From assembly GCA_017499595.2 (NCBI GenBank), contig CM038998.1, forward strand, positions 4,402,001 through 4,466,000: DNA of 64,000 nt, written 5' to 3'. The stretch is from Psilocybe cubensis. Lineage: Eukaryota. Both the position numbers and the translations under genes were made by a program. The notes under the pieces were generated by a model. That model worked only from the letters and a program-made list of their open reading frames with translations. It was not told the DNA's origin and did no database searches. How positions within the stretch are numbered: position 1 is the first letter of the stretch; every line of letters starts with the position of its first letter. This document shows positions 17,665-55,167 of this stretch, one piece after another.

Positions 17665-18618
17665 ATGGAGCAAGCAAGATCCCAGGGATCCACCGTACTC
17701 CATTCAGAAATCACAATTCAGTCACTTCCTGTTGAACTCATTTTTGATATATTCACTTATTTCAAACTCAAGACTTACATCATCGCCCACGGAGTGTGCA
17801 AAGAATGGCGCCGCCTTCTTCCTCTCGCTCCCATTAACCCAGTACGCCGCCGTCTCTTCCAGCTGTACCAAAACATGATAAACACCCCGGATTTTATCAA
17901 AACACGCGTGTGGATAGTTGATAATCTAGCACCTTTCGACAGGCAGGCATACATCGATGCCCTCCTCTCTCAATATCCAGCCATTCCGGAGGAATTTCGC
18001 ATATGGATACTCGAGTGGCCTGCTCGAGCTGTCATTGCCTGCATGTGGCCAGGTTTACCTTTCTCAGTTTGCTATTCCGTCGGACCACAACGACGATACG
18101 GCGTCAATTGGTTAGGGTATAAGAAACATTCACCCAAGCTTCTCGCGCCTATCTATTGCCACGGTTCCCGTACTTCCAAGTTTTCGCCAGCTCTCTTGAT
18201 TTGGCGAGCTACATATATCACGGAATATTTGTCCTTCGATGAAAGCGAGCCTGCGCTCTTTGGCCGTGTTGTCGTTAAAGACTACATGGAGCATCAATCG
18301 CCGGCGCTCATTTTTCATCATCGGGGAGCGATATATATGTCCGGTGACAAGAAAACCGCACCATCAAACAATGACGAAAACTCGTATACGCTCAGCGGCT
18401 CCTTTCCAGATTGGATCTGTTATCTTGAGTACCAATGGGCAATTACCGTCGAGCAAATTCATTACGTTGGTTCAAGTCAGATAGATACAGGATTTTTAAT
18501 TGAGGAAGACAGAGTAATGACCTGTTTCAATCAGGATATAATGAACACACGTCCTACAATGGAATGGACAGAGAGGCAGAGATTTTTGGATCATCTTACC
18601 TTTCCTTACTACGGTTAA
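17665..18618 (+). CDS. F-box protein, copy 1 (F-box plus putative SUKH/SMI1-KNR4-like domain)
   Basis: Intronless 317-aa ORF with F-box IQSLPVELIFDIFTYF...VCKEWRRLL and the family core PFDRQAYID.LLSQYPAIPEEFRIW.LEWP. Confidence 0.85.
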   Translation: MEQARSQGSTVLHSEITIQSLPVELIFDIFTYFKLKTYIIAHGVCKEWRRLLPLAPINPVRRRLFQLYQNMINTPDFIKTRVWIVDNLAPFDRQAYIDALLSQYPAIPEEFRIWILEWPARAVIACMWPGLPFSVCYSVGPQRRYGVNWLGYKKHSPKLLAPIYCHGSRTSKFSPALLIWRATYITEYLSFDESEPALFGRVVVKDYMEHQSPALIFHHRGAIYMSGDKKTAPSNNDENSYTLSGSFPDWICYLEYQWAITVEQIHYVGSSQIDTGFLIEEDRVMTCFNQDIMNTRPTMEWTERQRFLDHLTFPYYG

Positions 18619-18906
18619 ATGCCATAAAGTCATGTATTTCCATCCATGTACGCCGTCGATAGCCGAAATTGCAGAATTAATAACCAGTGAAGTGGCTTAT
18701 TCTCCGACATTTATCTGGTGCTACTTGACCAGTGGAATTGGTTCTTTTCAGTGATGGATACCATTTAGCTCTGCCAATGCTATATAATGGGTGGAATTGG
18801 GCCTTTTCGCCAGTTTTGAGATGACATTCTTTCAATGCACATCAGTAGGATGTACTCATTTCACACCTATAAGTTTAACTTTGTCTAGTACTTTCAGCAA
18901 CTTTCC

Positions 18907-19125
18907 ATGGACAGTGCACGCGTCGCCTCCTATCATTTCAGGCGCGACGGGTGCGATGATCACATGACGGTGGTGTGCAGCTATTCTTCATACACGAGGT
19001 CGAAAGTAAAAACGTTGGGCTCCGAAAAGTCGCAAGCTACGTCCACCACGGCCAGGGTGAAGGCTACCCATTCCCATTCCCCACCTACAAACAAAATCTC
19101 TACTCCGAGAGCGATATTTATATAG
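18907..19125 (+). repeat. Upstream module shared by F-box copies (also ~20850-21068, ~22580-22795, and 31628-31849 on -)
   Basis: Shared cgtcgcctcctatc..tcaggcgcgacgggtg.g.tgatcac.tgac...tacacgaggt.gaa.gtaaaaacgtt...aatctctactccgagagcgata...tatagATGGG. Confidence 0.85.
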
Positions 19126-20244
19126 ATGGGCCAAGTTCACTCGTTGTACAATGGTCTTTCATTTCTCACTGGGCGACTCTTGTCAATCTTCGGTATTCAA
19201 CGCCTGCTATTTGGTGGCAACAAACTGCTCTTTGAAGAATCAAAATCAGAGGACACTGCTGTGCACCTTCCCAAAACCACATTCCAGTCACTTCCTGTGG
19301 AGATAATTCTTCATATCTTCTCTCATTTGGAGCTCCAGCCATACCTCTTCTCTCGTGGTGTATGCAAAGAGTGGCTGCGTCTCCTTCCGCTGGCTGATAT
19401 CCATCCAGCACGGCGCCGTTTGATTTATCTGTATTTGAAGATGGTTAACACGCCGGATTTTATCAATACCCGTACATGGATAGTTGACAAACTCCTGCCT
19501 TTCGATCGCCAAGCATACATTGACTCCCTCCTGTGCCAATATCCAGCAATTCCGGAAGAATTTCGCATCTGGCTTCTCGAGTGGCCAGAAAGAGCGACAA
19601 TAGATTGTACCTGGCCCGGCCTACCGTTTGTTTCATGCAATGATATCATTCCCAGCAAAAGGTCTGGTGTTAATTGGATGGCGTACAAAAGACATTCACC
19701 TCAGCTACTCGCACCAGTTTATAGGCAGTGCACTCCCTTTGCCAAGTTTGTCCCTGGACTTCTAATTTGGAGACAAAGTGGTTTGACAGACTGGCTCATT
19801 TTTGATAAAGATGAACCTGAAGTATTTGGTCGTGTGTATATCACCGACCTTGTGGAATTTGAAGATCCAGCGGTCATCCCTCATGAACGACAAAAAATGC
19901 TCGACGACGACGACGACCCCATTCCTATCTCCGTCAGTCCTGGTTCCGATGAAGAAGACAACGAATTCCGAGAAGATCATTCTCACGAACTAGAGGGAGC
20001 GGGCGACAAGGATACAGAAGGCTATCTCAACGTACCCCATCCCGACTGGGTTGCCTATTTAGAGAGCTGCTGGGCTGAGAATGACATTAGGCTGCAATAC
20101 CATGGAGTGCCCAACCTGATAAATGACTATCTTATCCCTGAATCTCAGGTGACTACGGAATTCAACGGGTCTTGTGTTACTACACTCCCTGCTGTTCCGT
20201 GGAGCTTACGGGAAAGATACACAGAATATCTTACGAAATTTTAA
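19126..20244 (+). CDS. F-box protein, copy 2
   Basis: Intronless 372-aa ORF with FQSLPVEIILHIFSHL...VCKEWLRLL and the same family core. Confidence 0.88.
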   Translation: MGQVHSLYNGLSFLTGRLLSIFGIQRLLFGGNKLLFEESKSEDTAVHLPKTTFQSLPVEIILHIFSHLELQPYLFSRGVCKEWLRLLPLADIHPARRRLIYLYLKMVNTPDFINTRTWIVDKLLPFDRQAYIDSLLCQYPAIPEEFRIWLLEWPERATIDCTWPGLPFVSCNDIIPSKRSGVNWMAYKRHSPQLLAPVYRQCTPFAKFVPGLLIWRQSGLTDWLIFDKDEPEVFGRVYITDLVEFEDPAVIPHERQKMLDDDDDPIPISVSPGSDEEDNEFREDHSHELEGAGDKDTEGYLNVPHPDWVAYLESCWAENDIRLQYHGVPNLINDYLIPESQVTTEFNGSCVTTLPAVPWSLRERYTEYLTKF

Positions 20245-20395
20245 CGAACTGCTCTGTTATATACTCAGGTCTCTATACATTGCATTAAGCACCATTCTGC
20301 ATGCTTTAAACAGCCTTGAAAAATTTTCATCATTCGTCATCTAATATCTTAGAGCAGGCATATTTGCTACACTACGTGGTCGAAATTTTACACAG

Positions 20396-20585
20396 TCATG
20401 TAGTGCTATTTAACGAAGAGCCTTCTCGTCCATCACTGGCCCATGATTACTACGGGACTATGCAGCCGATGAGATGCAAAATAGACATCAAAATATAAAG
20501 CCACGCACACAAGCGGGCGCTTTCTGCCCTGTACACAATTCGTAACCCCCAAATGATCATCGTTTCATTAGCCAGAAACTGAGCA
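20396..20585 (-). pseudogene. Internally deleted 3' remnant of a paralog of the deaminase-like gene at 24049-25143
   Basis: Reverse complement reads QFLANE..GLRIVYRA, then an intron-like stretch, then SWASDGREGSSLNSTT*. The intact gene reads QFLANNE...GLRIVDRA and ALWASDQQGDFSSNSNA*. Confidence 0.75.
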
Positions 20586-21068
20586 AGATACTAATTGTTC
20601 CTGCAAAATCTCATCGATTGCTTTTTGTATCACATAGTCAAAGAATATATAGTAACTTTAATTCGATTCCCAAACCGAAATTGCAGAAGTAATAACCACT
20701 GACCAGGAAGGTGGTTATTCGGCGCCTGCATTACCACTAATCAGGTGTAATATTACATATTTTCTTGCATCAGTAGGCTGTGATACCTCTATAAACATTT
20801 TTGTCTCAAACTCCAGTAACTTTCCCAGTTGATTTGATTTTGCCTTCTAACTGTGCGCACGTCGCCTCCTATCTCTCAGGCGCGACGGGTGCGATGATCA
20901 CCTGACGGTGGTATACAGACATCCATATATACACGAGGTTGAACGTAAAAACGTTGGGCTCTGAAAACTTACAAGCAACGACCACCACGTCCAGGGAAGA
21001 GGTAACCCATTCCCATTCTCCGCCCACAAGCCTAATCTCTACTCCGAGAGCGATACCTCACTGTATAG

Positions 21069-22127
21069 ATGGGCCAAGTTTACTCGTTGTACAATGGCCT
21101 TTTCTCTCTCAGTCAATGGTCCATTCTCAGTATTCGCCGACTACTATTTAGTGGAAACGAACTGCTACTGGAAGGTCCAAAATCAGAAGAAACTAAAGAT
21201 TATCCCAAAGCAACACTCCAATCACTTCCTGTCGAAATACTTCTTCATATTTTCTCACATTTGGAGCTTAAACCATACCTCTTCTCTCGTGGTGTATGCA
21301 AAGAATGGCAGCGCCTTCTCCCACTCGCTGATATCCTTCCAGCACGACGCCGTCTGCTCGAGCTGTATTTAAAGATGATTAATACGCCGAATTTCATCGA
21401 TACCCGTTCATGGATACTCGAGAATCTCCAGCCTTTTGACCGCCAGGCTTATATTGACACCATCCTCTCTCAATATCCGGCAATTCCTGAGGAATTTCGT
21501 ATATGGCTTCTTGAATGGCCAGAACGGGCAACTATAAATTGTATCTGGCCAGGCCTACCGTTTGTTTCATGCAATGACCTCAGTCCCAGCAGAAGGGATG
21601 GAGTTAACTGGGTGGCGTACAAAAGTCATTCCCCTCAACTTCTTGCGCCAGTCTATAGGCAAGGTACCCCCAATGCCAAATTTATTCCAGGTCTTTTGAT
21701 CTGGAGGCATCACTATAGGACAGAATGGCTTATTTTTGATAAGGATGAACCCCAACTCTTCGGTCGCGTTTATGTAACCAGACTCATGGAACTTGAAATG
21801 CCAGCGGACATCCAACATGAACGTCGACTGACTGCCGAAGATGATGAAGAAGACATCGAGTCTCTAGAATATTCTCTTGAAGAAGAGGGCACGGACGACA
21901 CGGACGGCAGGTTCAATGTACCATATCCTGATTGGATTAGCTATTTGGAGAGCTGCTGGACCGAGAACCTCAGGAGGTTGGAAAAACGGAGAATATTTCT
22001 CCTAAAAGACGATATTATTGATGAATCTGATATCGGACCTTATTTCAATGGGCACAACGATACAATGCTTCCTGCTTTCTCATGGAGCTTACGAGATTCG
22101 TTTACAGAGTGCCTTGTAACAAGTTAA
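21069..22127 (+). CDS. F-box protein, copy 3
   Basis: Intronless 352-aa ORF with the same F-box and family core. Confidence 0.88.
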   Translation: MGQVYSLYNGLFSLSQWSILSIRRLLFSGNELLLEGPKSEETKDYPKATLQSLPVEILLHIFSHLELKPYLFSRGVCKEWQRLLPLADILPARRRLLELYLKMINTPNFIDTRSWILENLQPFDRQAYIDTILSQYPAIPEEFRIWLLEWPERATINCIWPGLPFVSCNDLSPSRRDGVNWVAYKSHSPQLLAPVYRQGTPNAKFIPGLLIWRHHYRTEWLIFDKDEPQLFGRVYVTRLMELEMPADIQHERRLTAEDDEEDIESLEYSLEEEGTDDTDGRFNVPYPDWISYLESCWTENLRRLEKRRIFLLKDDIIDESDIGPYFNGHNDTMLPAFSWSLRDSFTECLVTS

Positions 22128-22303
22128 TTCTGGAAGGCTGTTGCGTACATAAAGATGTATACATTGGTAGTCCTGTTTGAATACTGCAGGGAAATTATTC
22201 TATGCACCAAGTAGATGTTGAAAACTCCTCTCATACAGTACTAAAGATTTGAAAGTGGATTTATACATTGCTCTATGCAATTGAAATTGTGCATGGCAGA
22301 TAG

Positions 22304-22446
22304 CTAGGCAGTACTACTTGATGCAGAAGGTATGCCTGCCCCTTGTCCACTGGTAAATAATGCAAGCTAGAAAGGCCGAAGGATCAGTACAAATACTTTT
22401 AGGAATATGAAGATACGTACAGTTGCCTCGGATTGATATATTGCAT
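22304..22446 (-). pseudogene. 3'-terminal remnant of a deaminase-like paralog
   Basis: aatatgaagatacgtacagttgcctcggattgatatattgcat (~22404-22446) matches aatatgaagacacatacagtggcatcggattgatatattacat (~24145-24187). It retains IYQSEAT, a GT..AG intron and a last exon LALFTSGQGAGIPSASSSTA*. Confidence 0.75.
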
Positions 22447-22795
22447 TACCGCTAATCAGTTGTAATATTACATATGTTCTTGCATCAGCAGGCTGTGATA
22501 CTTCTATAAAGATTTTTGTCTAAAACTCCAGTAACTTTCCCATGATTTGTATGTTTTGCATTGATTTGATTTTGCTTTCTGACTGCGCACACGTCGCCTC
22601 CTATCTCTCAGGCGCGACGGGTGTGGTGATCACATGACAGTGATGTACAGACGTCCATACACGAGGTTGAACGTAAAAACGTTGGGCACTGAAAGTTACA
22701 AGCTACGTCCACCACGTCCACCGAGGAGGCTACCCATTCCCATTCTCCGCCCACAAACCTAATCTCTACTCCGAGAGCGATACCTCACTGTATAG

Positions 22796-23896
22796 ATGGG
22801 CCAAGTTCACTCGTTGTACAATGGCCTTTTCTCTCTCAGTCAATGGTCCATTCTCAGTGTTCGCCGACTACTATTTGGTGGAAACGAGCTGCTACTGGAA
22901 GGGTTAAAATCAGAAGAAACTACTGTGTACCTTCCCGAAGCAACTTTTCAATCACTTCCTGTCGAGATAATTCTTCATATTTTCTCACATTTGGAGCTCA
23001 AACCATACCTCTTCTCTCGCGGTGTATGCAAAGAATGGCAGCGCCTTCTCCCACTCGCTGATATCCATCCAGCACGGTGCCGTTTGATTGATCTGTATTT
23101 GAAGATGGTTAACACACCAAATTTCATCGACACTCGTACATGGATAATTGACAATCTCCAGCCGTTCGACCGACATGCGTACATTGACACCCTCCTTTCG
23201 CAATATCCAGCAGTTCCTGAAGAGTTCCGAATTTGGCTTCTAGAGTGGCCAGAAAGGGCTACTGTGAATTGTATCTGGCCTGGTCTGCCACTCGTATCGT
23301 GCACCGACTTCAGACCCAGTAGACGGTGTGGCGCTAACTGGGTGGCGTACAACAGGCATTCTCCTCAGCTTCTTGCCCCAGTTTATAGGCAGCATACCCC
23401 CTTTGCCAAGTTTGTCCCCGGTCTTTTAATTTGGAGGCAAGGTAGCTCAACAGAGTGGCTCATCTTCGACAAAGACGAACCTGAACTCTTCGGTCGTGTC
23501 TATGTCACCGATCGGTTGGAAAATGAAAAACCGGCGGTCATTCCACACGAGCGACAAAAAATCCCTGATGACGACGATGACGAGCCCATCTCTGGATCCG
23601 AGGATGAAGACGGTGAGTTCCGAGAAGAGTTCTCTTCTGGACTTATGCTAACCGACGACGTGGATTCAGAAGGCTACCTCAATGTACCATATCTCGATTG
23701 GATTAGCTTTTTGGAGCGTTGCTGGGATAAAAATGCCCGCACGCTTCAATATCATAAGGTGCATGGTTATCTAAAAGACCTTGCTATAACTGAATCCGAT
23801 ATGGGTCCGGAATTCAACTCGTTTTATGAAACTAGACTCCCCGCTTTTCCGTGGATCGCACGGGAGTCATTTACAGAGTATCTCTTGAAGAAATAG
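22796..23896 (+). CDS. F-box protein, copy 4
   Basis: Intronless 366-aa ORF with the same F-box and family core. Confidence 0.88.
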   Translation: MGQVHSLYNGLFSLSQWSILSVRRLLFGGNELLLEGLKSEETTVYLPEATFQSLPVEIILHIFSHLELKPYLFSRGVCKEWQRLLPLADIHPARCRLIDLYLKMVNTPNFIDTRTWIIDNLQPFDRHAYIDTLLSQYPAVPEEFRIWLLEWPERATVNCIWPGLPLVSCTDFRPSRRCGANWVAYNRHSPQLLAPVYRQHTPFAKFVPGLLIWRQGSSTEWLIFDKDEPELFGRVYVTDRLENEKPAVIPHERQKIPDDDDDEPISGSEDEDGEFREEFSSGLMLTDDVDSEGYLNVPYLDWISFLERCWDKNARTLQYHKVHGYLKDLAITESDMGPEFNSFYETRLPAFPWIARESFTEYLLKK

Positions 23897-24048
23897 TCTA
23901 CTACAATTCTTTACTTACAAGGAAATCTATTGTTACTTCAGCTTTCTCTAACCTTTCAAAGAACTATAGAAAACGGTCATCCAATTTCCCAGAGCTGGCA
24001 TACTTTATACATTATGCGGTTGACAATACACACGTTACGCTAGTAGTA

Positions 24049-25143
24049 CTATGCATTGCTATTTGACGAAAAATCTCCTTGTTGGTCACTGGCCCATAGT
24101 GCATACTAAATGAAACAGTGAGTAAGTCAGAAAAACCCTATAACAATATGAAGACACATACAGTGGCATCGGATTGATATATTACATGTGCCCTATCCAC
24201 AATTCGTAAGCCCAGAGTCTTTCTAACAAGATCTGTAGCATGGCGCCTGCAATTCAGGCAGAATGCTATCGGTTCTTTAGCGGTACTCATACTCAAAGAA
24301 TATACACTGATCACTCGATTGCCTTGTTCATTGTTAGCCAAAAACTGGATGGCAGCCTTCAGGATGTAAGGTAATGCAATGTTTTCAGCGCATTGCTCCA
24401 CAGGGCGTTCCTCCAAAGATTCTTCGTGCGGGTTACTGCCGTTAAGGGTGGGAAATACTAGAGCTCGGCGATAAAGACGATCCATTTTTTTCTCTGCTTC
24501 AGTGGGTTTGCGTCTGACCCTGGAAGCTGCCGAGCTGTGACCATAGTGGTCTGGGATGGTTTTCTCTTCTGTTTCCACAATGCAAAAGGCATTGAACTGA
24601 GACTTCGCGATATTGTTTCCACGGCTGTGGATATAAGAGTCGATAAATCTCCCCAAGGAAAAGTATGGATTGCGAGTTCCATTGGGATCCGTTGCTTTAG
24701 GATGTTGCAAGCTATACGCAATGGTGCGCAGGATTCGTTGATAGAAAGGGTCGTGAGTATAGGCGGGCAATGTGTCGTCGTCTCGGATCCCTATCATGGC
24801 AGGAGAAATTAGGCCTTTCTCAATCCAGTGCTTAACACAGTTGTCAAGGTAATTTGCTTTTTCCTCGTCAGACGCCGTGTCAAAGTTGAACGGAACTAAA
24901 GATTGTCAACAGGTTCGACGACTATGAGCTTGGGGTACAGACAGCAATAGAGAATCACTAACAGGGGGGATACGCTTGAGGATCAACAAGTGGTTTGTTC
25001 AGGAAAGAGGCAATTTCCTCAATATGGAACAAACAAGCGTTGAAAAATATCATATCACTCTCATTAAGAGGAGTTTGAATCATGTCTGAAGCTAGGCTCA
25101 ATTGAGTATGATTATATCGTCATATGGAACACCACATACTCAT
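24049..25143 (-). CDS. Putative Zn-dependent deaminase-fold protein (CAE...CxxC), about 4 exons
   Basis: Predicted spliced product MTSDMIQTPLNES...PVEQCAENIALPYI...VYSLSMSTAKEPIAFCLNCRR...GLRIVDRA...DAT|YALWASD...*. Predicted introns near 25093-25139, 24896-24962 and 24106-24161. Confidence 0.65.
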
Positions 25144-25401
25144 TGTTTGGCGTGAGTTGAGAATAAAGTGAGTACTTTGGCTATTGTCAAGTGGGTGCTC
25201 AAGAATAATCGATGAGATTTCGTGAATAGTTGACCTCTGCTTTTATGCATTTGCTAGGCTTGAGCGACGTTCTCCTCATGGCTAAGGGTTTAGTGAAAAT
25301 GCCTCGCATTACTGGTGCATAACATGCTAAGCTCTCAAAGAAGTCGTAGAAATGGCCTGTGTATCCTCGCGTTGTACACGCATTTTTTGAGAAGATGAAG
25401 G

Positions 25402-25417
25402 TTTGACAGCTGTCAAA
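25402..25417. promoter_or_regulatory. Perfect 16-bp palindrome TTTGACAGCTGTCAAA (TALE-homeodomain dimer-like site)
   Basis: Seen directly, ~260 bp upstream of the deaminase-like gene start. Function is inferred only. Confidence 0.3.
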
Positions 25418-27297
25418 AAGAGAAGTTCAAATCTTCATTGATTTTCCTGAGCCATGATGCAGAGCGGTTGCGTATACAACCGTTTTGCGTATACACGAGT
25501 CATTTACGCACAATATAGTTTTTACGGACGTAAGGGTAACAACATACTGCCATAAGCCCATAAGCGCCTGCAGGTAGTTTTCTGGGCTCAGATGGATAAA
25601 AGTCCAAAGGTGAAATCAAGAAAAACTTCTCTAGATGAGGGATACGCACTGTGACTCTAGCCTCTAATCTCCGCTTTTGGCCCTGAGAATATCATAGATC
25701 GCCGTCCATCTACCTTGACTCATTTGATGTGCTCTAAGAATACGGCAATCACCTCGTTCCCTTATCTCGCGCCCACAATGTAACTCCATCAATGTTACAC
25801 TTAGTAATGAAATCAAAACACGAACTATACGACTTCCGCTAAAACGTGAGTCTCAGGGACTGAACTGTGAGGGATATTTAAAATACGTGAGGTTTGACCT
25901 CATGTGATGATCCTTAGTAATTAAGCGCCCGTGAATGGCACACCAAAGTTTTAAGCCAAATACGTTGATTGAAGAAAGACAAGTAACTAGAATCCTCAGA
26001 TTATAGCCTCCTCCGTTGTACCTCAATGGCCCACTTTGCTTGCTTGGCATTTTGACCCAATGCTTCGTTTCGCACACAACATGTGCCGACCATCCGGGTC
26101 TAAAAATAATACACACGCTTCCACCTCAAGTTGTTATCTCGCGCCCACTGCATGCTAGCACTAAAAAAGAGTTCCTACCTCAGAAAGTCTCAAATATGAG
26201 CATATTAGGACTTTGAAAATATTAATCAAGAAGCGAGACGTACACCCTCCACGCTCAGTCGGACCGGCTTTCATTTGTGGATCTGAACAATCAAACGTGT
26301 ACACTTTTGACAATCACAGACTGGGTGTGGTTTCACGGTACCTCCACTCCAAAAGTCCTCAAAGCGCTCAGATAAGTCAGATCTTACCCACATCCTTGGA
26401 GAGTTATCAACGTGGCTTAGGAGTGAGTCAGGTTGAGTGAGCCTGGGGGTATTTTTTTTTAAATAGAGCGATAGTAGAGGCTACAATGAAGTGGAGATAC
26501 ATCGGTGTGCCCTTGTATAAAGGAGACCGACCCTTACGCAGTATCTCCATGAATGATTAAGCGAAATGTGGCGCTGCGCATTCTCAGAGCAGTATTAGAC
26601 AGGCTCGACCTTCAGCGCCGGGGAACATAAGGGCCCATCGTAGTACACGCCAAATAGACCGACGACAGTAATTTTTCTCCAGTACTAGACAGTGATGATC
26701 TTACAACTGGAAATATGAAAGACCCGACTATTGTCAAAATGGACGCTGTGTCTCCTTCCGTTGTGGGCGGGCATACTTCTAGTTCTGAAGGTTTCCACGC
26801 CACTAAAGTTGTTCTCGAGTTTCTCAGACTCTGTCAATTGATAGGTTTGCGCAGCGGCTGACGAATAATGACTCATAGCGCGCATTTGATGAAAGGTATT
26901 GGTCTTATTGCCGTGAACACAGAGGAGCGGATCCTCCTTGGATTTTAATGACCAGCCTCACTTACGCGTCAAAGTTAATTGCAATAAGAGCAAGTACACC
27001 GCTTTCATCAGGTTTGCTAAAGGATTTCAAATGTGCTTACTGATAGCCTTTTTGGTTTAGGTACAGACAAACAAATTCGCAAGACGTGTCCAGAATGCAG
27101 TAAGCATCTTTATACCGCTGTCAACCTGTTTTCTCATTATTCAAACAGCATCGGGATCTTCGGAGGGCCTCATACCTTCGCGTCGACTGAAATTTTAGGG
27201 CATAGTATGAAACTTCCACTACATTCAAGAATAAATAGCGGTCCAAATTTCAAAATTTGTCACTTATCCTCCTCCACACATCTCACTCCTAACCAAC

Positions 27298-28830
27298 ATG
27301 CCAGCTTTACAGTCCAACTCAGGTGTAAAAGTGCTCGTCACAGGAGCCAACGGATTTGTTGCAATGGCAATTATCCAGCGTCTTCTTGGCCTTGGCTTCT
27401 CTGTCCGTGGAACAGTGCGATCGCAAGAGAAAGCGGAAGAGACCAAGAAAATATTTTCATCTTACGGTGACCGTCTTGAGTTACTGATTATCGAAGACTT
27501 GACCCAGGTAAGCACCAGTCATTTTCAGGCTAATTATCGTCATTGTCACTGATCACGTCAACTCTCCAATAATCCATTAACCTGCAGGATGGAGCACTAG
27601 ATGATGCCGTTAAAGGAATCGATGCCATTGAGCACACGGCATCTCCTGGCCCAGGTCACTTGCCTGATGAAGATCCTTACGAAAGTAGGTTTTGAAAATT
27701 TTATATTCAGCGCATTGGAATTTATGTCTAAGCTGAACGGTTCTAGTTTACATTAATCCTGCTGTTCAAGGAACTCTGAGCATTTTAAATAGCATCCTGA
27801 AGAACGGGTACTTGCGTCTCCTACTCCACGACCCAATCAATTAGTAAATGAATGTCACAGCTCCCAGGTCAAACGTGTCGTTATAACGTCCTCTCTCGCT
27901 GCTATGATGAGGCCTATTGACGGACCCACCGTTCTGGATGAAAACGACTGGGGAGATGAGTATGTCAGGATTGTAGAAACACAAGGGAAAAGTGCATCTC
28001 CGATGGAGAAATATTATGCGTCAAAAACTCTCTCGGAGAGAGGTGAGTGGTTGTAAACGCACACTTATCGCTTCGAACTCATTGTGTGGCCCTAATAGCT
28101 GCGTGGGACTTCTGTGAGAAACACAAGGGAATGATTGGCTGGGACCTCGTCACAATCAATCCATCTCTGGTATCGTGTTCAACATATTTTTTCTTCAGTA
28201 AAGTGGTCTTATAAATTGGTACAGATTATAGGTGTAAGAGTGATCAAAATTGGCAGCTTTCTGATATTGTGCTGATCGCAACATAGCCCTTGCTTCAAGA
28301 CTTTCAGGAGTTGCACGAAGTAACTCCGTCTGTCCGCCTCTGGTTCCATTTTATGGCCACAGAACAGTCCGAAGAAATTCTGAAATCTACCTTGTCATAC
28401 GTGGATGTTCGCGACGTCTCCGCGGCTCACGTTAACGCGCTGAAAGTTGAAGATGCAGGCGGCCAGCGTTTCATCTTGTCTGCAGGTTTTTACCGTTTAT
28501 TTTGACTATGATAACCAAGTATCAATGATAATTATTCATACAGAATCAATAACTTGGCAGGATTCGCGTACGTTTCCCTATGCTTATATTATTGCATGAG
28601 ATTGACTCATACCCCAATCAATTTATCACACAGGAAATCATCTACTCGATCGCAAGCCAGAATATTACACCTCTGGAATCTTTAAGCGAGGCAATCCGAA
28701 CCTGAAGTCATACATACCATTGACTCTAAAAACTCAGAAGGCCGAGAGTATTCTTGGAATAAAGTACAAAAGCCGTGATGAGACACTTCTCAGTGTAGCA
28801 GAAGAATATAGACGCAGGGGATTTCTGTAG
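27298..28830 (+). CDS. Extended SDR, NADPH-dependent aldehyde reductase II/GRE2-like (multi-exon)
   Basis: VLVTGANGFVA, VRGTVRS, IEHTASP, VKRVVITSS, YYASKTLSER (YxxxK) and YVDVRDVSAAHV. Confidence 0.92.
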
Positions 28831-29456
28831 ACTCGCTCAAGTATGAAATAGCCTGTGATCTGCATATTACAGTTTATGAAAGGGAAACTTCAAGTTATGG
28901 TGTTTACACATTTTTGTGTGTAATATGTTTTCTTACCTCACGTAGTTTGTACTTGAGAAATTTTTGATAGTGCGGATAGACCTGCCACTATCACTGCGAG
29001 TCTGCTTACGAGCCTGCAATCGCGGCATGATATTGTCCGGCCTCGCGCGATGCGGACGCGTTTGAATTGGTACCTGACACGAGCATCCGAGTCATCGGTT
29101 TGCCATCACAACAGAGGCGGCAACTGTGACGAATTGTTTTGGAGCAACCTAAGACCAGCGGGATCCAAACGTCCCAAGAAGACTTTCGTATTTTTGACAC
29201 TCAAGCACGACCTTGATTTAATGTGACTGATTCCTCGCCCGTAAATCGTTTGCAAAGTTCATGACTCTTGCGGAAGTGTGTACAACTCGTAACCAAAACT
29301 GGTTAGAAAGCGGAAAAAATATGCGTGAATGTTTGGGAAGTAGTAGTAGTACACAGCTATACACAGACCACATACTCCAAAGCCCAATAGCTAACTTTAT
29401 GTCCGTCAACACGTATAAGATAATTTTATAGGAGACCGCTCACCAGAACAAACATA

Positions 29457-30158
29457 TCAAACCTCCGCGGCCTTTCCCTCCAGCATTGAAGGATTAGATC
29501 TTGTCAGTGCAGGAGAAGACTTAAGCTCTTGTCTGTGATGCAAAAAACACACTGTAGTGATCGAAAGGATAATAGCCGCCTCTATCGCCGAAGCAACAGC
29601 AGACGTGGTCACCGCCCATAGGATATCCGCCATCCATGTACTGCAGGCGTTTATTGGAGTTCCATTGGATCCTATCCCAGGAAAACAGAGTACAATATCG
29701 TGCTTTCTGGCGCGGTGAAAGCTGATTGCTCGCTCGACGACAGACGCCATCCACAACAACCACAAAAGCGTAGCGTAGGCAATAACTTTCGGAGAACATG
29801 GCGTGAAAGGGAGAATGGAGTCGGTGTGGTGGCGCTGTAACCATACGAGGAGCAACGTCTCTCCGTGGTGGGGCAGTGTCAGCACGAATGCCAGGATAAT
29901 GGGTATCAGCAGTTTAGGATTCTGCGAGCGGATGACATTGTCGATGACGGTGCATATGAAAGCAACGAGCGCTAAAGGGAGGGATGCACTGATGAGCTTG
30001 GCGAGATATCGAGGTATCCGATTCGGCGGTGGCTTTTCGACGTCGACGAGCGTCGACGCGATGGACGCTGTCTCTGATTTGTCGTTCTGCTGCGGTGCGA
30101 CAATCATCTCAATGTCGTTGATGACGAAGACAGCACTAGACTGCTGCGCATCTTTCAC
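29457..30158 (-). CDS. Hypothetical membrane protein with about 4 hydrophobic helices; true start uncertain
   Basis: Open 233-codon frame with hydrophobic segments (LISASLPLALVAFICTVI, LLIPIILAFVLTL, VIAYATLLWLLWMASV, AVASAIEAAIILSITTVCFL). Confidence 0.6.
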   Translation of the reverse strand: MKDAQQSSAVFVINDIEMIVAPQQNDKSETASIASTLVDVEKPPPNRIPRYLAKLISASLPLALVAFICTVIDNVIRSQNPKLLIPIILAFVLTLPHHGETLLLVWLQRHHTDSILPFTPCSPKVIAYATLLWLLWMASVVERAISFHRARKHDIVLCFPGIGSNGTPINACSTWMADILWAVTTSAVASAIEAAIILSITTVCFLHHRQELKSSPALTRSNPSMLEGKAAEV

Positions 30159-30586
30159 CGAGCTAAGTTCATAAGTCCGGCAAGTAGCTTCCGCTGCGCC
30201 GGATAACTGTTAGTTGATTGAAGCGCAGGTCAGACTGTGAAAGGTAGAAGCAGTGCACATCGTACACATTTGATGCATGCTTGTTACTGAGCTAGTGAGC
30301 ATAGTTAAAGGTTGCGAGTCAATCACTGATGAGTATGCACTGTGGCTACTATGTGACTCTGATGATCGTATCAGGTCCAACCTGTCGCGGGGCACGTTCG
30401 CAGTGAGAGATAGAAGTAGAGCAGAAGAAGCTGATTGTGTGCTTCATTTTAGTTAATGCTTTGTTGAGTCGAATCATTAAGAGCCCCCGTGGATTGATTC
30501 ATCCACAATGAAATTGTCCCACCAGCTGCTGTGACGTCTTACAAAGTAACAATATACGGAATTGTTTTTAATGGGCAGTGGAATAG

Positions 30587-31627
30587 CTAACTATTCATGA
30601 GATTCTCTGTAAACGACTCCCGTAAGCTCCATGGAACAGTGGGGAGTGCAGTAGCATAAGACGAGTTGAATTGCGGGGTGATTTCGGATTCAGGAATGAC
30701 GCGGTCCTCAAACGGACGGCACGTTTCACGGTGTTCGAGCCTTCTAACATTTTCGGCCCAGCAGCTTTCCAAATAGGTGATCCAATCTGGATATGGCACG
30801 TTGAGATACCCATCTGCGTCCGCGTCATACGCTTCTTCCAGCTCGTCGTCGTCATCGGGAATTTTTTGTCGTTCGTGAGGGATGACCCCCGATGATTCAA
30901 GTTCCAACAAACTGGTGACATACACACGGCCAAAGAGTTCAGGTTCATCTTTATCGAAAATAAGCCACTCAGTCAAGTGACTTCGCCTCCAGATTAGAAG
31001 GCCAGGGACAAACTTGGCGTAGGGAGTGTGCTGCCTATAGACTGGCGCTAGAAGTTGAGGGGAATGCTTTTTGTATGCTACCCAGTAAACGCCAGACCTT
31101 TTACGGGGGCTGAAGTCGATGCATGATATAAATGGCAGACCAGGCCAAATACAACTTACAGTCGCCATTTCTGGCCATTCGAGAAGCCATATGCGAAACT
31201 CTTCCGGAACTGCCGGATATTGGGAAAGGAGGGTGTCGATGTACGCTTGTCGGTCGAATGGCTGGAGATTGTCAATTATCCAGGTACGAGTGTCGATAAA
31301 ATCTGGCGTATTAACCATCTCCAAATAAAGCTCAGCTAGACGGAGCCGTGCTGGATGGATATCAGCCAGCGGAAGGAGACGCTGCCATTCTTTGCATACA
31401 CCACGAGAGAAGAGGTATGGCTGGAGCTCCAAATGAGAGAAAATATGAAGAATTATCTCCACAGGAAGTGATTGAAAGATTGAGTTGGGAAGGTACACAA
31501 TGGTTTCTTCTGATTTTAACCCTTCCAGTAGCAGTTCGTTTCCACCAAATAGTAGTCGGCGAACACTGAGAATGGACCGTTGACTGAGAGAGAAAAGGGC
31601 ATTGTACAACGAGTGAACTTGTCCCAT
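30587..31627 (-). CDS. F-box protein, copy 5
   Basis: Intronless 346-aa ORF of the same family. Confidence 0.88.
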   Translation of the reverse strand: MGQVHSLYNALFSLSQRSILSVRRLLFGGNELLLEGLKSEETIVYLPNSIFQSLPVEIILHIFSHLELQPYLFSRGVCKEWQRLLPLADIHPARLRLAELYLEMVNTPDFIDTRTWIIDNLQPFDRQAYIDTLLSQYPAVPEEFRIWLLEWPEMATVSCIWPGLPFISCIDFSPRKRSGVYWVAYKKHSPQLLAPVYRQHTPYAKFVPGLLIWRRSHLTEWLIFDKDEPELFGRVYVTSLLELESSGVIPHERQKIPDDDDELEEAYDADADGYLNVPYPDWITYLESCWAENVRRLEHRETCRPFEDRVIPESEITPQFNSSYATALPTVPWSLRESFTENLMNS

Positions 31628-33014
31628 CTATATAGTGAGGTATCGCTCTCGGAGTAGAGATTAGGTTTGTGGACGGGGAAAGGGAATGGTTAGCCTCCCT
31701 CTGGACGTGATGGACGTAGCTCGCAACTTTTCAGAGTCTAACGTTTTTACATTCGACCTCGTGTATGAAGAATAGGTGCACACCACCGTCATGTGATCAT
31801 CGCACCCGTCGCGCCTGAAATGATAGGAGGCGACGCGTGCACTGTCCATGGAAAGTTGCTGAAAGTATTAGACAAAGTTATAGGTGTGGAATTTGCACAT
31901 CCTGCTAATGGCCACTCCAGTATCCATATTCAAAATTCCTCTGGAATTGCTGGATATTGAGAGAGGAGGACATCAATGTACGCCTGCCTGTCAAAGGGTG
32001 CTAGAATATCAACGATTCATACGCGTATTTTGATAATTCGGGGTGTTTATCATGTTTTTGGTACATCTGGAAGAGACGTCGGCGTATCGGGTTAATGGGA
32101 GTGAGCGGAAGAAGGCGGCGCCATTCTTTGCACACTCCGTGGGCGGTGATGTAAGTCTTGAGTTTTAAATAAGAGAATATATCAAAAATGAGTTCAAAAG
32201 GAAGTGATTGAACTGTCATTTCTGGAAGGAATACGGTGTATTCCTGGAATAATGCTTGCTCCATGTGTATCCGATTTCCACCAAAGACCAGGCGCTATGT
32301 GTATGGCTTGAGTGTAACGCCGATAAAAAATCCACTGTTTATCGAATGTTAACCTATTCAAAAAATGATATGGGTCCCTCAGAACTTGTAAGGTTTTGTT
32401 GTGAACAGTAGATTACAAAAAGTGTCCCGTCGCCTTTATCAACGTTACAGGGAATCATTCTCCGTCGTTATCTCCACCTGTTGAGTGTAACCGTTGATAG
32501 GAGTCTCGAGCAGAGCCGCAGCACACAAGCGACCATATAACACGCGAAATGTCTCTTTTGGCGACTATGTAAGTTTGGTTTCTCATCCTTTCCCTCTACA
32601 CTAGCCTGCTATGCTCTATGTAATTAACCTCCTTCCACAGCGAAGTATAGTGAACAAAAGGTGCAATAATATACATCATAAATACACAATAACGCATACT
32701 CGTCAAGACCTCACCACTGACTCTACAATCAACCTACATCGAAATCGCCCCAATGCCATTATTTAAAATAACACAGTGAGTGCAGACACCACTGGTTCAA
32801 TAGCTCGTTCCAGAGAGGAGACCTACCTCAGAGATCCTGCAACGCCACTTGTTCTTGTGTTTGAAGAGGTATTGACTGGTTGCCAATTTTGCGAATATAT
32901 CTCCAGCTGTTCCAGCTAAAAACAACAACCACAACGTAGCGAACGAACCAGTTTAGTTAGACGGTCTAGAATTTAATTAGGATGATGGCAGTACATACAC
33001 GGCTAGCATCGTAT
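31628..33014 (-). repeat. Inverted duplicate of ~16903-19125 with an internal deletion of ~18020-18839
   Basis: The reverse complement matches the last exons of the 15202-17190 gene, the intergenic DNA, the 5' part of F-box copy 1, and then the upstream region of copy 2. Confidence 0.9.
31911..32264 (-). pseudogene. F-box pseudogene, copy 6 (truncated duplicate of copy 1)
   Basis: MEQALFQEYTVFLPEMTVQSLPFELIFDIFSYL... with indels near 32030-32060, CGC>TGA in EEFR, and truncation after LEW. Confidence 0.85.
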
Positions 33015-33371
33015 AAGGATGTAACTAACATAGTCTGTAACTTAAAAGACTGTCTATGTTACTAATACCATACGACGATTGCTCGTTTTAATTCTTTAAA
33101 ACAAGTAATTGCCGTCTCATCCTATATTGAACGGCCTGAACTTGCAAAACCATTTAACCCACACCGTCGAGTTAAGTGTCAGCCTTGAGGCAACATTGTG
33201 TGTGTCTCATATGCCCTGTTCCCGATATATATTCTGTGCCGCTGAACGAAAGGGAGGCGAACCTTGTTAATCGAACAACACTGCCTTCTCAAACGCATTT
33301 TGACGAACAGTTTATGCAACTTTTCATACAGAAGTAGAGTATACAGAGTGCTCTTTAATGGACAGTAGCAA

Positions 33372-34475
33372 TCAATTATTCGCGAGATACTCTGTACATA
33401 ACTCCCGTGAGATCCACGGAAAAGCGGGGAGTCTACTTTCATAAAACGAGTTGAATTCCGGACCCATATCGGACTTAGCGATAACACGGTCATCTAGATA
33501 GCGGTGCTCCTCATTATATTGCAGCGTGCGGGCATTTTTATCCCAGCAACGCTCCAAAAAGCTAATCCAATCGGGATATGGTACATTGAGGTAACCTTCT
33601 GAATCCACGTCGTCCGTTATCACAAGCCCAGAAGAGAGCTCTGCTCGGAACTCACCGTCTTCATCCTCGGATCCAGAACTGGGCTCGTCGTCGTCGTAGT
33701 CAGGAATTTTCTGTCGCTCGTGGGGGATGACCGCCGGTTTTTCATTTTCCAACCGATTGGTGACATAGACACATCCGAAGAGTTCAGGTTCGTCTTTATC
33801 AAAGATGAGCCACTCTGTTGAGATACCTTGCCTCCAAATTAAAAGACCGGGGACAAACTTGGCAAAGGGAGTACGCTGCCTATAAACTGGCGCGAGGAGC
33901 TGAGGGGAATGCATTTTGTACGCCACCCAATTAACACCACACCGTCTACTGGGTCTGAAGTCGATGCATGCTACGAGTGGCAGACCAGGCCAGATACAAT
34001 TCACAGTAGCCTTTTCTGGCCATTCGAGAAGCCAAACGCGAAACTCTTCCGGGATTGCCGGGTATTGTGAAAGGAGGGTGTCGATGTACGCCTGTCGGTC
34101 GAACGGCTGGAGATTGTCAACTATCCATGTACGGGTGTCGATAAAATTTGGTGTGTTAACCATCTTTAAATACAGCTCAACTAGACGGCGCCGCACTGGA
34201 TGGATGTCAGCAAGAGGAAGGAGGTGTTGCCACTCTTTGCATACACCACGAGAAAAGAGGTAAGGTTTGATCTCCAAATGTGAGAAAATATGAAGCATTA
34301 TCTCGACAGGAAGTGAATGAAGCGTGGCTTTGGGAAGGGGTAGAGTTCCTTCTTCTGCTTCTGTTTCCTCAAGTAGCAGCTCGTTTCTACCAAATAGAAG
34401 AGTGTGAATACTGAATATTGACCACTGACTGAGATAGTTCAAAAACCCATTGTACATCGAGAGAGCTTGACCCAT
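33372..34475 (-). CDS. F-box protein, copy 7
   Basis: Intronless 367-aa ORF; C-terminal two-thirds very similar to copy 4. Confidence 0.88.
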   Translation of the reverse strand: MGQALSMYNGFLNYLSQWSIFSIHTLLFGRNELLLEETEAEEGTLPLPKATLHSLPVEIMLHIFSHLEIKPYLFSRGVCKEWQHLLPLADIHPVRRRLVELYLKMVNTPNFIDTRTWIVDNLQPFDRQAYIDTLLSQYPAIPEEFRVWLLEWPEKATVNCIWPGLPLVACIDFRPSRRCGVNWVAYKMHSPQLLAPVYRQRTPFAKFVPGLLIWRQGISTEWLIFDKDEPELFGCVYVTNRLENEKPAVIPHERQKIPDYDDDEPSSGSEDEDGEFRAELSSGLVITDDVDSEGYLNVPYPDWISFLERCWDKNARTLQYNEEHRYLDDRVIAKSDMGPEFNSFYESRLPAFPWISRELCTEYLANN

Positions 34476-37856: not shown

Positions 37857-38206
37857 ATTTGTGGTGAAAGAACAAGCGAAAATTATTTTCAGCCATCACG
37901 AGTATTCATGGGTATCTGGCCCCTATCTCGGTCATTTTACCCATTTTTGTGAACAAGTTAAGAGTTCATTGGAGTCCTTTAACGATTACTGGCCTTTAAG
38001 CAGACGACATATGATAATCATAATGATAATATGATTTGAGTGGATGATCAAGAAGTAGAAACGACATTGAAGTTGAATTTCGTATCACAAAGTGATTAAA
38101 AAGGCGACATGGGGATAGAAGAAATCGTGTAAAAACATGAAGACATGACAACATAACAAACATAATGCATTTCTAGTTACAGAACCTTTCCAGACATTGC
38201 AAAGGA

Positions 38207-54830: not shown

Positions 54831-55167
54831 TGAGACTCTAGAAATCTTTCCAACTGACTCCCAAATGACATGGTGGATAAAACAACATTATCTCGCATGA
54901 CCAGACATTACAGGTAGTCTATTTGCTGTCATGTTTCACCAGAATCCCGATTAACGACCACTAGTGCCGACAATGTTTCGGCGACTCCCTGCAAAGCGGC
55001 CAAGCCGTACACCTCGGTGATGAGCTGAGGAAGTGAGCTGGGCCTGAGACTGCTGATCCTGGACTTATGTCTACCGCATTCTAGCGCATAAATCAATACC
55101 GGGGTCCGGGAAGGTTTTCGTTCAACAGAAACACCCATCCTACTCTACTCAACTCTACGTATTGACT

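Follow-up and report, generated by a model that had tools for sequence, protein, structure and literature searches.

Among described systems, the bacterial YwqJ/SUKH polymorphic toxins are one of those closest to the locus studied here: as set out in Iyer et al. 2011 (PMC3239186) and Zhang et al. 2011 (PMC3113570), the gene of a protein with a CxE/HxE...CxxC signature lies beside a SUKH-like gene. SUKH3 is listed as a YwqJ immunity protein and the YwqJ clade has basidiomycete members, Laccaria included (Iyer et al. 2011, PMC3239186). Two further traits in these accounts, the piling up of solitary immunity-like genes in arrays and the fast divergence of the toxin-like partner, are common to the bacterial systems and the mushroom genes. 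FBXO3 and the F-box+SUKH-4 fusions of filamentous fungi likewise have an F-box at the N terminus and behind it a SUKH-type domain, which, as in the mushroom family, occupies the substrate-recognition position (PMC3113570). Degradation of a deaminase through an F-box protein is also on record, since yeast SCF-Saf1 targets the adenine deaminase Aah1 (PMC8501602). In that account it serves as ordinary regulation. As general background, Aah1 has an amidohydrolase fold and not a cytidine-deaminase fold, the genes of Saf1 and Aah1 are not known to be neighbours and, to our knowledge, Saf1 has no SUKH domain. Two other likenesses also belong to general background: in peel-1/zeel-1 of Caenorhabditis elegans the antidote, a relative of a cullin-ligase substrate receptor, sits in tight linkage with its toxin, and Vif neutralises the deaminase APOBEC3G by recruiting it to a cullin E3 ligase, although Vif is a viral antagonist and not a genomic neighbour of APOBEC3G. 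The protein families of both systems are unrelated to those of the mushroom pair, and we know of no SUKH domain or YwqJ-like deaminase in either.

The locus lies in a 64-kb stretch of Psilocybe cubensis DNA, the whole of which was analysed and is called the window below. Compared with P. cubensis proteins it shows 98–100% identity. It contains an array of genes for F-box proteins with a SUKH-like domain, one of which adjoins a gene for a deaminase-like protein with a CAE...CxxC signature. Unlike the bacterial toxins, this pair is eukaryotic and cytoplasmic, and Pfam picked out no trafficking or secretion module in it; its genes are monocistronic, bear introns and vary in orientation, and both proteins fail the Pfam model of their bacterial counterpart. 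The SUKH-like protein also differs from bacterial immunity proteins in having an F-box, so that neutralisation would proceed by ubiquitylation and not by binding alone. In contrast to FBXO3, the mushroom family is without an ApaG/DUF525 domain, and compared with the F-box+SUKH-4 fusions its matches to Pfam SUKH-4 and SMI1_KNR4 are not above threshold. It is further set apart by tandem multiplication, by its occurrence in Agaricales only among the named matches and by the linked deaminase-like gene; for FBXO3 and the Aspergillus proteins no deaminase link is described in the portion of PMC3113570 available to us.

Table 1. Positions of the F-box/SUKH-like paralogs and of the deaminase-like sequences in the window.
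Feature	Position	Strand	Remarks
c1 F-box/SUKH-like paralog	17665..18618	+	317-aa ORF without MGQ leader; Pfam F-box-like E=5.7e-6
c2 F-box/SUKH-like paralog	19126..20244	+	372-aa ORF; Pfam F-box-like E=4.3e-6
Decayed 3'-terminal deaminase-like fragment after c2	20398..20671	-	tblastn; ~270 nt
c3 F-box/SUKH-like paralog	21069..22127	+	352-aa ORF; Pfam F-box-like E=5.1e-7
Trace, after c3, of the end of deaminase-like exon 2 and the intron behind it	22391..22446	-	repeat D11, blastn
c4 F-box/SUKH-like paralog	22796..23896	+	366-aa ORF; Pfam F-box-like; partner of intact deaminase-like gene
Deaminase-like gene	24012..25083	-	convergent with c4, directly after c4
c5 F-box/SUKH-like paralog	30587..31627	-	346-aa ORF; Pfam F-box-like
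c6 truncated paralog, mirror of c1	31910..32264	-	87-aa ORF
c7 F-box/SUKH-like paralog	33372..34475	-	367-aa ORF; Pfam F-box-like
c8 solitary eighth family member	55057..56211	+	tblastn with c4; beyond the first-pass coordinates

The first-pass annotation had placed seven F-box paralogs, one of them truncated, between c1 and c7, and open reading frames and repeats agree on all seven, with Pfam matches in the six intact ones. The eighth member at 55–56 kb was found with c4 as query (aa 48-363 on 55288-56211, 44% identity, E=8.5e-81), and its ORF at 55057-55995 has a Pfam F-box-like match (E=8.2e-7). The copies are joined by direct and inverted repeats of 300–1062 nt with 70–91% identity, well above chance: c7 is 88% identical to c4 over 1062 nt (I1), c5 is 87% identical to c4 (inverted repeat I2), c2 belongs to repeat families D1, D2, I3 and I4, and c6 matches c1 in the inverted repeats I8 (91%) and I11 (88%). 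The homology of c6 to c1 ends at 31910; a contig of run X3 continues beyond this point into c1-like coding sequence, as judged by eye. Transcript-like contigs in runs X1 and X2 represent c3 and, at a length of 1.17 kb, cover c1. In c4 an in-frame stretch of 57 nt (23612-23668) is absent from an X2 contig with a GT..AG joint at 23611>23669, and a 57-nt joint in an X1 contig corresponds to 33599-33655 in c7, likewise in frame and with GT..AG ends; both stretches are most likely introns.

The F-box proposed for these proteins is borne out by Pfam and by a structural profile. All six intact copies among c1–c7 match PF12937 and PF00646 above the curated cut-off, as does c8; across the family 62 of 70 members do so, and in the PDB the profile of the family finds F-box chains of Skp2 (E=1.5e-5). 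For the C-terminal part we found moderate support for the SUKH-like domain that had been suggested. Aligned by hhalign to 33 bacterial SMI1_KNR4 domains, it gave a probability of 58% (P=1e-4, score 32.5) over 99–115 columns, with the motifs IPEEFRxWLLEW and WLIFD..GRV falling on the SUKH core. None of 100 column shuffles reached this score (0/20 and 0/80; maximum 14.5), and a reversed control also stayed below it. The AlphaFold model of c4 is confident (pLDDT 83.8), and its top match in Foldseek was FBXO3 in an SCF complex, the best structural counterpart of the family, at E=0.023, TM 0.22 and 235 columns, with no match at E<=0.001. Among the 70 family members Pfam SMI1_KNR4 matched a single one below threshold (E=0.016), and SUKH-4 and the other SUKH models matched none.

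Directly behind c4 lies the one intact convergent CAE...CxxC gene of the window, just as the first reading of the array had it; in a six-frame translation it is the sole match to its family HMM (E=1.2e-82). Its initial ORF of 219 aa (24138-24797, minus strand) was lengthened to 25083 by a gene model with exon 1 at 25083-24963 and exon 2, which holds CAE and CxxC, at 24895-24162. The junction of these exons is backed by alignment to P. cyanescens P0002 and to the paralog P0076. The 3' end is either a stop at 24138-24140 or an extra exon at 24137-24012; this third exon found no backing among homologs, and in the three-exon model the stop codons of c4 and the deaminase-like gene are 115 bp apart. 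Convergent deaminase-like sequence had also been reported after c2 and c3. It is present at both sites, but as 3' fragments of ~270 nt and 43–56 nt. Behind c2, tblastn aligned 20522-20671 to aa 232-277 (42% identity over 50 aa) and 20398-20445 to aa 299-314, and the translation contains stops and an internal deletion that takes out the CxxC region. Behind c3, repeat D11 is a 56-nt trace with 80% identity to 24132-24187 (43 nt at 88%, 22404-22446, by blastn), and the upstream homology of the next unit (D7) begins at 22442, directly after it. Tblastn and the six-frame family HMM search of the window found no deaminase-like sequence after copies 1, 5, 6 or 7. The proposal that older toxins had decayed while their antidotes were kept finds no support in these fragments: they match the 3' end of the gene only, are of unequal length and abut the next repeat unit, as duplications born truncated would be expected to leave them. 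Tandem duplications breaking inside the deaminase-like gene are a better explanation than the decay of once complete genes.

The strongest result of the analysis is that the two families are linked in other genomes as well. Nine deaminase-like genes come from genomes whose locus tags give positions, those of P. cubensis, P. cyanescens and Agrocybe pediades. Six of the nine adjoin an F-box family member, with adjacency taken from locus-tag numbers and contig sizes and not from sequence (the window pair, CVT25_009503/04, and D9613_003635/36, 003675/76, 003686/87 and 010033/34); one further gene lies 11 genes from a family member. In two metagenome contigs of a distant lineage an F-box family gene follows 1.9 kb downstream of the deaminase-like gene, and in Laccaria both families occur on a single 345-kb scaffold. 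In Cyclocybe aegerita the members of the two families among the matches listed sit on separate contigs. Unlinked homologs had been named in advance as the finding that would speak against a pairing, and the pairing has come through this comparison; the same metagenome contigs, however, carry the pair head-to-tail, unlike the tail-to-tail window, so that a fixed tail-to-tail unit is not supported. Among the four A. pediades pairs the two families have concordant identity matrices (r=0.92, 6 distances), though three of these pairs belong to a single gene cluster and are perhaps not independent of one another. Since the pairing recurs in other gilled mushrooms, the F-box and deaminase-like proteins probably work together.

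The explanation that we favour, to which we give an even chance of being correct, is a conserved two-gene module of Agaricales derived from a bacterial pair of deaminase toxin and SUKH immunity protein. One gene would encode a substrate receptor of an SCF ubiquitin ligase, with an N-terminal F-box and a SUKH-like binding domain behind it, and its neighbour a protein of the cytoplasm bearing the CxE...CxxC zinc-binding signature known from the YwqJ clade of nucleic-acid deaminases. The ancestral polymorphic-toxin pair would have consisted of a YwqJ-type deaminase and its SUKH immunity protein, and the immunity-like protein would have acquired its F-box in the fungus. It could then bind the deaminase partner and pass it to the SCF ligase for ubiquitylation, a hand-over that would restrain a potentially mutagenic or RNA-editing enzyme. 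Tandem and inverted duplication of the F-box gene has produced the eight copies in the window, some duplications probably breaking within the deaminase gene and leaving its 3' fragments; the partnerless copies are kept by purifying selection, resembling orphan immunity genes. The pairing would perhaps represent a domesticated bacterial toxin together with its immunity protein. Of this picture, the domains, the layout of the array, the linkage across genomes and the co-divergence are observed, whereas the deaminase fold, the binding, the degradation and the descent from bacteria are inferred.

An unlikely alternative, in line with the first-pass annotation, is that the locus is a selfish or conflict element of a deaminase-like toxin and an adjacent F-box antidote. 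The pair would serve allorecognition once hyphae have fused, kill spores or ward off nuclei or viruses that invade, with the surplus F-box copies as an antidote stock against the toxins of other strains. The tight, conserved linkage and the co-divergence of the pairs would suit such an element, as would the role of bacterial YwqJ deaminases as toxins with SUKH immunity proteins (PMC3239186). Divergence of the deaminase-like proteins is fast (24–47% identity among the paralogs of one genome, A. pediades, vs 39–58% for their F-box partners), the array is not built alike in the isolates or haplotypes sequenced, as loose ends at 22136, 31910 and 33023 show, and the last 69 residues of the F-box paralogs evolve fastest, with an omega of 0.96 in the youngest pair. 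Against this stand the age of the F-box paralogs (dS 0.34–1.0) and the purifying selection on them (omega 0.17–0.26), which are unlike the rapid turnover of an arms race. The deaminase-like gene was present in both DNA runs examined (X3 and X5), with no presence/absence polymorphism seen across them, although the structure of the array differs from one run to the other, and a scan of ten flanking ORFs found no HET, NLR or transposon domains. We consider it unlikely that an ancestor of the Agaricales acquired both genes of the bacterial pair together and that the pair became a toxin–antidote system, in which SCF degrades the cognate deaminase and the solitary F-box/SUKH arrays form an antidote repertoire against the deaminases of other nuclei. 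If it did, such loci would control whether nuclei or hyphae of mushrooms are compatible, or would control spore killing.

Also unlikely, and slightly more so, is an ordinary lineage-specific expansion of F-box genes, in which the CAE...CxxC gene has no functional tie to the array and has stayed beside it through synteny and segmental duplication. Agaricomycetes are reported to have F-box, BTB and RING families that evolve fast and have expanded markedly (PMC10282164), the F-box family has a broader spread and more members than the deaminase-like one (8:1 in the window, seven of the eight members having no deaminase-like neighbour), and segmental duplication could yield the clustered trio of A. 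pediades pairs. Yet adjacency holds across P. cubensis, P. cyanescens, two separate contigs of A. pediades and the metagenome lineage, and it outlasts both the divergence of the deaminase-like proteins and a change of orientation. It would also be an odd coincidence for the partner's domain to resemble the immunity protein of the neighbour's own toxin clade.

That the CAE...CxxC gene, labelled deaminase-like in the first-pass annotation, encodes a YwqJ-like zinc deaminase is suggestive only: the CxE...CxxC signature and a YwqJ profile match speak for it, whereas Pfam, solved structures and fold models lend no support. Among 41 relatives, which include a Laccaria bicolor protein, E170 is invariant, and C168, C212 and C215 are each kept in at least 90%. 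By hhalign the family aligned to 50 YwqJ-related deaminases with a score of 23.8–23.9 (P=0.009–0.004), CAE falling on HAE and FCxNC on ACHNC; none of 190 shuffles reached this score (0/40 and 0/150), the match being weak (probability 4–9%) and column shuffling a permissive null where two short Cys/His motifs are concerned. No similarity was seen to TadA-like deaminases (P=0.39–0.5) or to SUKH (P=0.3). Among the Pfam deaminase models none matches the family; for PF14431 (YwqJ-deaminase) none of the 41 members was significant, the single match at E=2.3 being noise. The family profiles match no solved structure, a search for prokaryotic relatives found none, and Foldseek with the AlphaFold model, which is poor (pLDDT 48.5), returned nothing at E<=0.001. 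The G of the Gx[CH]xE signature of the YwqJ clade is missing in most members (present in 3 of the 21 aligned sequences displayed), the conserved histidine is only in part retained, and there are inserts of ~45 and ~10 residues. In the low-confidence model the order strand-strand-(insert)-helix[CAE]-strand-helix[CxxC]-strand is compatible with a deaminase core. It is very unlikely that the protein is instead a small, non-enzymatic zinc-binding protein that converged on a Cys/Glu/Cys zinc site, for instance one with a regulatory role or one that serves the SCF receptor as its dedicated substrate or cofactor: this would account for its going unrecognised by family models, structures and fold search and for a profile match resting mostly on two short motifs, but that match is specific to YwqJ and not to any Cys-rich profile, and the sole residue invariant in all 41 sequences is the CxE glutamate, the proton shuttle of deaminases, which a purely structural zinc site would not need.

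The array of F-box genes spans 17.6–34.5 kb of the window, with four copies (c1–c4) on the plus strand and three (c5–c7) on the minus strand. ORFs were found at each place where the first-pass annotation had put these seven paralogs, including the truncated c6, and all six intact copies (c1–c5 and c7) passed the Pfam F-box-like model. The ORFs of the window are 98–100% identical to P. cubensis proteins carrying JR316_ tags. Direct repeats with a period of 1.57–1.93 kb link the copies, and inverted repeats among them reach 1062 nt at 88% identity: c1 and c6 are mirror images including their flanks, and c7 and c5 both mirror c4. An eighth family member, c8, lies 21 kb past the array; it has no deaminase-like neighbour, and its reading frame shifts near 55995, owing to either an intron or a frameshift.

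Window coordinates of the F-box family members, the deaminase-like gene and its longer fragment
Feature	Coordinates	Strand	Basis or remark
c1 F-box gene	17665-18618	+	ORF, Pfam F-box-like
c2 F-box gene	19126-20244	+	ORF, Pfam F-box-like
c3 F-box gene	21069-22127	+	ORF, Pfam F-box-like
c4 F-box gene	22796-23896	+	ORF, Pfam F-box-like
c5 F-box gene	30587-31627	-	ORF, Pfam F-box-like
c6 F-box gene, truncated	31910-32264	-	ORF
c7 F-box gene	33372-34475	-	ORF, Pfam F-box-like
c8 eighth family member	~55057-56211	+	44% identical to c4; beyond the range of the first-pass annotation
Deaminase-like gene, exon 1	25083-24963	-	gene model, directly after c4
Deaminase-like gene, exon 2	24895-24162	-	gene model
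Deaminase-like fragment after c2	20522-20671 + 20398-20445		two collinear pieces matching the last third of the protein

The C-terminal domain of the F-box proteins had been proposed to be SUKH-like. Pfam sees the F-box alone in this family, apart from one of 70 members that matches SMI1_KNR4 (E = 0.016). An AlphaFold model built from 70 sequences was confident (pLDDT 83.8, pTM 0.79) and its top Foldseek match in the PDB was FBXO3 in an SCF complex (235 columns, E = 0.023, TM 0.22); the remaining good matches span the F-box helices only. When the C-terminal columns of the family were aligned by hhalign to 33 SMI1_KNR4 domains from proteobacterial genomes (SUKH-4, found in one of 401 genomes, was too rare for a reference alignment), we obtained a probability of 58%, P = 1e-4 and a score of 32.5, with the helix IPEEFRxWLLEW and the strands WLIFD...GRV in register with the SUKH core. 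The reversed control gave P = 0.7, and none of 100 column shuffles reached the score (maximum 14.5). A Protein Atlas search with the C-terminal part yielded no usable match. The proposal has moderate support: the label ‘SUKH-like’ is probably right, short of proof of membership.

Directly after c4 lies the convergent deaminase-like gene, whose exon 1/2 junction is backed by alignment to a P. cyanescens homolog and a P. cubensis paralog. Homology of the protein ends at ...YQSDAT, and the 3′ end of the gene is compatible with either a stop at 24138-24140 or splicing to 24137-24012. Deaminase-like sequence does follow c2, c3 and c4 and is intact only after c4, as first described; however, what follows c2 and c3 are just 3′-end pieces of unequal length. 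The piece after c2 contains stops and a deletion taking out CxxC, and the trace after c3 amounts to a match of 43–56 nt. Each of them lies against the point at which the upstream homology of the next repeat unit begins (20727 after c2, 22442 after c3). Nothing comparable was seen downstream of c1, c5, c6 or c7, and a search of the six-frame translation of the window with the family HMM gave no second copy of the gene. Read from the sequence, this is the pattern expected of tandem duplications in which one of the breakpoints fell within the downstream gene. The first-pass annotation had instead taken the pieces for older toxins that decayed. Because they are 3′-terminal, unequal and abut the next unit, full toxin genes with later decay are not required; duplications truncated at birth suffice, and we rejected the decay of whole genes after c2 and c3.

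Members of the deaminase-like family are few: when 1.84 billion representatives were searched with a profile, 39 proteins scored E ≤ 0.001, and the named ones all belong to Agaricales (Psilocybe, Agrocybe, Cyclocybe, Flammula, Laccaria, Mycena and Tulosesus). Across the alignment of 41 members only the CAE glutamate is invariant, and the three cysteines of the motifs are retained in 90% or more. No Pfam model matched any of these 41 members, PDB sequences gave no match to the family profiles save noise (pyridoxal kinase, E = 0.58), and none of ten prokaryotic pattern matches was upheld by tblastn. The AlphaFold model was poor (pLDDT 48.5) and Foldseek found no meaningful match to it; in this low-confidence model the elements run strand, strand, helical insert, helix from CAE, strand, helix from CxxC, a predicted order that is that of the deaminase core. 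Alignment by hhalign to 50 YwqJ-related deaminases, all proteobacterial, covered 110 columns with scores of 23.8–23.9 (P = 0.009–0.004), placing CAE on HAE and FCxNC on ACHNC; a YwqJ-deaminase was present in one of 401 and none of 41 Pseudomonadota genomes sampled. No column shuffle of 190 reached this score (maximum 20.7); shuffling sets a low bar for two motifs this short. Comparisons of the family with TadA-like deaminases and with SUKH domains gave P = 0.3–0.5. As a yardstick, YwqJ deaminases set against the TadA-like ones, genuine relatives within the superfamily, reached only P = 0.017, marking hhalign as a weak method here. The Protein Atlas provided a weak lead, a cluster with 11% YwqJ-deaminase members (score 0.91, recognition below the mark). 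In PMC3239186 the YwqJ clade extends to basidiomycetes, Laccaria being the example given, and SUKH3 is listed among the immunity proteins for YwqJ. A Laccaria bicolor protein also belongs to our family, which does not imply identity with that example. Taken together, we consider a deaminase fold for the CAE...CxxC protein moderately likely.

Linkage of the two families in other genomes had been set beforehand as a test of the pairing. Six of nine deaminase-like genes in genomes with positional locus tags adjoin an F-box family member; adjacency here is read from tag numbers, three of the pairs come from a single cluster, and the list of F-box members is incomplete. These are the window pair (c4 and the deaminase-like gene), CVT25_009503/009504 of P. 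cyanescens and four pairs of Agrocybe pediades (D9613_003635/003636, D9613_003675/003676, D9613_003686/003687 and D9613_010033/010034). Among the other three, CVT25_008982 lies 11 tags from the F-box member CVT25_008993, and JR316_0001441 and D9613_010817 have no partner among the listed F-box members. In another A. pediades assembly, contigs of 146,978 and 9,761 bp are shared by several genes of the two families, and in Laccaria both families are found on one scaffold of 344,946 bp; in Cyclocybe aegerita the listed members of the two families are on separate contigs.

An independent check in a distant lineage concurs. This lineage is represented by three metagenome contigs that are 97–100% alike and were counted as one. 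In two of them a member of the F-box family (family-HMM E = 2e-77 and 2.5e-78) lies ∼1.9 kb downstream of the deaminase-like gene on the same strand (contig L151, 5481-8860; contig L152, 162-3946), and the third stops 386 bp past the deaminase-like gene. No long ORF was seen between the two genes in L151 and L152. The two families are therefore linked beyond the window, as predicted; the tail-to-tail unit originally proposed is not fixed, since the order in these contigs is head-to-tail. The four A. pediades pairs fall into the same grouping in both families, three close and one distant (r = 0.92, six distances), and the identity among their deaminase-like paralogs has fallen to 24–47%. A neighbourhood retained despite such divergence argues for a functional tie.

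Pairwise dN/dS among c2–c5 and c7 is 0.17–0.26, with tight constraint on the F-box (0.04–0.14) and the SUKH-like core (0.10–0.19). The final 69 residues are least constrained, with 0.96 in the youngest pair c4/c7. With dS of 0.34–1.0 these copies are old genes that have been maintained. Divergence is uneven when codons 1–90 are set against the rest: dS is 0.09 in the leader versus 0.67 in the SUKH-like core for c4/c5, and 0.19 in the F-box versus 1.28 for c3/c4. The low 5′ values in some pairs suggest gene conversion of the promoter-proximal part. Contigs from two DNA sequencing runs (X3 and X5) depart from the window sequence at 22136, 31910, 33023, 18754 and 34432; past 31910 the X3 contig reads as c1-like coding sequence (∼19 of 30 letters, by eye). 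Another isolate or haplotype thus seems to have a longer, or even a complete, version of the truncated c6, and the array is structurally polymorphic.

The domains, linkage and co-divergence of the pair are observations, and their best-supported reading is a conserved receptor–substrate pair. The SUKH-like domain would bind the deaminase-like protein, the F-box would hand it to an SCF ligase for degradation, the deaminase-like protein would act as an enzyme, and the pair may descend from a bacterial toxin–immunity pair. Co-folding of c4 residues 88–366 with the exon-2 protein scored 0.00, in a run that used no alignments and with a partner of uncertain fold, and carries no weight either way on binding. 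The data do not separate two readings of such a pair, routine control of a dangerous enzyme and a genuine toxin–antidote or allorecognition element; the structural differences between isolates and the fast-evolving deaminase keep the latter alive.

Each half of the pair was known. F-box proteins with SUKH domains (passages of PMC3113570, with FBXO3 and Aspergillus fusions) and basidiomycete YwqJ-clade deaminases (in part of PMC3239186) were each noted in 2011, and F-box expansions in mushrooms are on record in sections of PMC10282164. In the literature searched we found no paper linking fungal F-box–SUKH proteins with YwqJ-clade deaminases; supplements of the 2011 papers might list basidiomycete YwqJ members along with their neighbouring genes. 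Among the many expanded but uncharacterised F-box families of mushrooms, a conserved pair would yield a first candidate substrate. Such a pair would, in addition, provide a concrete example in a eukaryote of a bacterial toxin–immunity pair that stayed together after transfer, with its immunity protein now tied to the ubiquitin system. An active deaminase would be a candidate source of mutagenesis or editing so far unexplained in basidiomycetes. The pair is compact and lends itself to direct tests in yeast.

Contigs from two transcript-like runs (X1 and X2) cover c1, c3, c4, c5 and c7. That these runs are RNA is a guess, no run being on record as such, with which spliced joints and gene-restricted cover agree. 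Within the acidic linker, a 57-nt GT..AG stretch, most likely an intron, is missing from spliced contigs of c4 (23612-23668) and c7 (33599-33655); as it keeps the frame and contains no stop, forms with and without it are both translatable. They leave a gap at 24212-29620 that takes in the bulk of the deaminase-like gene and is uninformative on its expression. One X1 contig (23675-24084) starts inside c4, passes the c4 stop at 23896 and reaches what may be the final exon of the deaminase-like gene; if it is read rightly, the 3′ ends of the two transcripts may overlap. Counted by eye, 17 of 27 aligned F-box family members start with MG, often as MGQxxS, and such N-termini occur in c4 (22796-22813), c2, c3, c5 and c7. 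We take these to fit the N-myristoylation consensus, and proteins so modified may be membrane-anchored.

The surroundings of the array resemble housekeeping genes (ORFs at 3596-4378, 10610-12310, 27298-27552, 36768-37895 and 38207-38833), with a tRNA U5-methyltransferase-like gene, pieces of a dynein heavy chain N-terminus, an NAD-dependent epimerase, a lysine methyltransferase and an anticodon-binding domain. Transposon, HET and NLR domains were absent from the ten flanking ORFs scanned. Between the arms of the array an ORF on the minus strand (29457-30209), without a Pfam family, encodes a predicted multi-pass membrane protein and is covered by transcript-like contigs.
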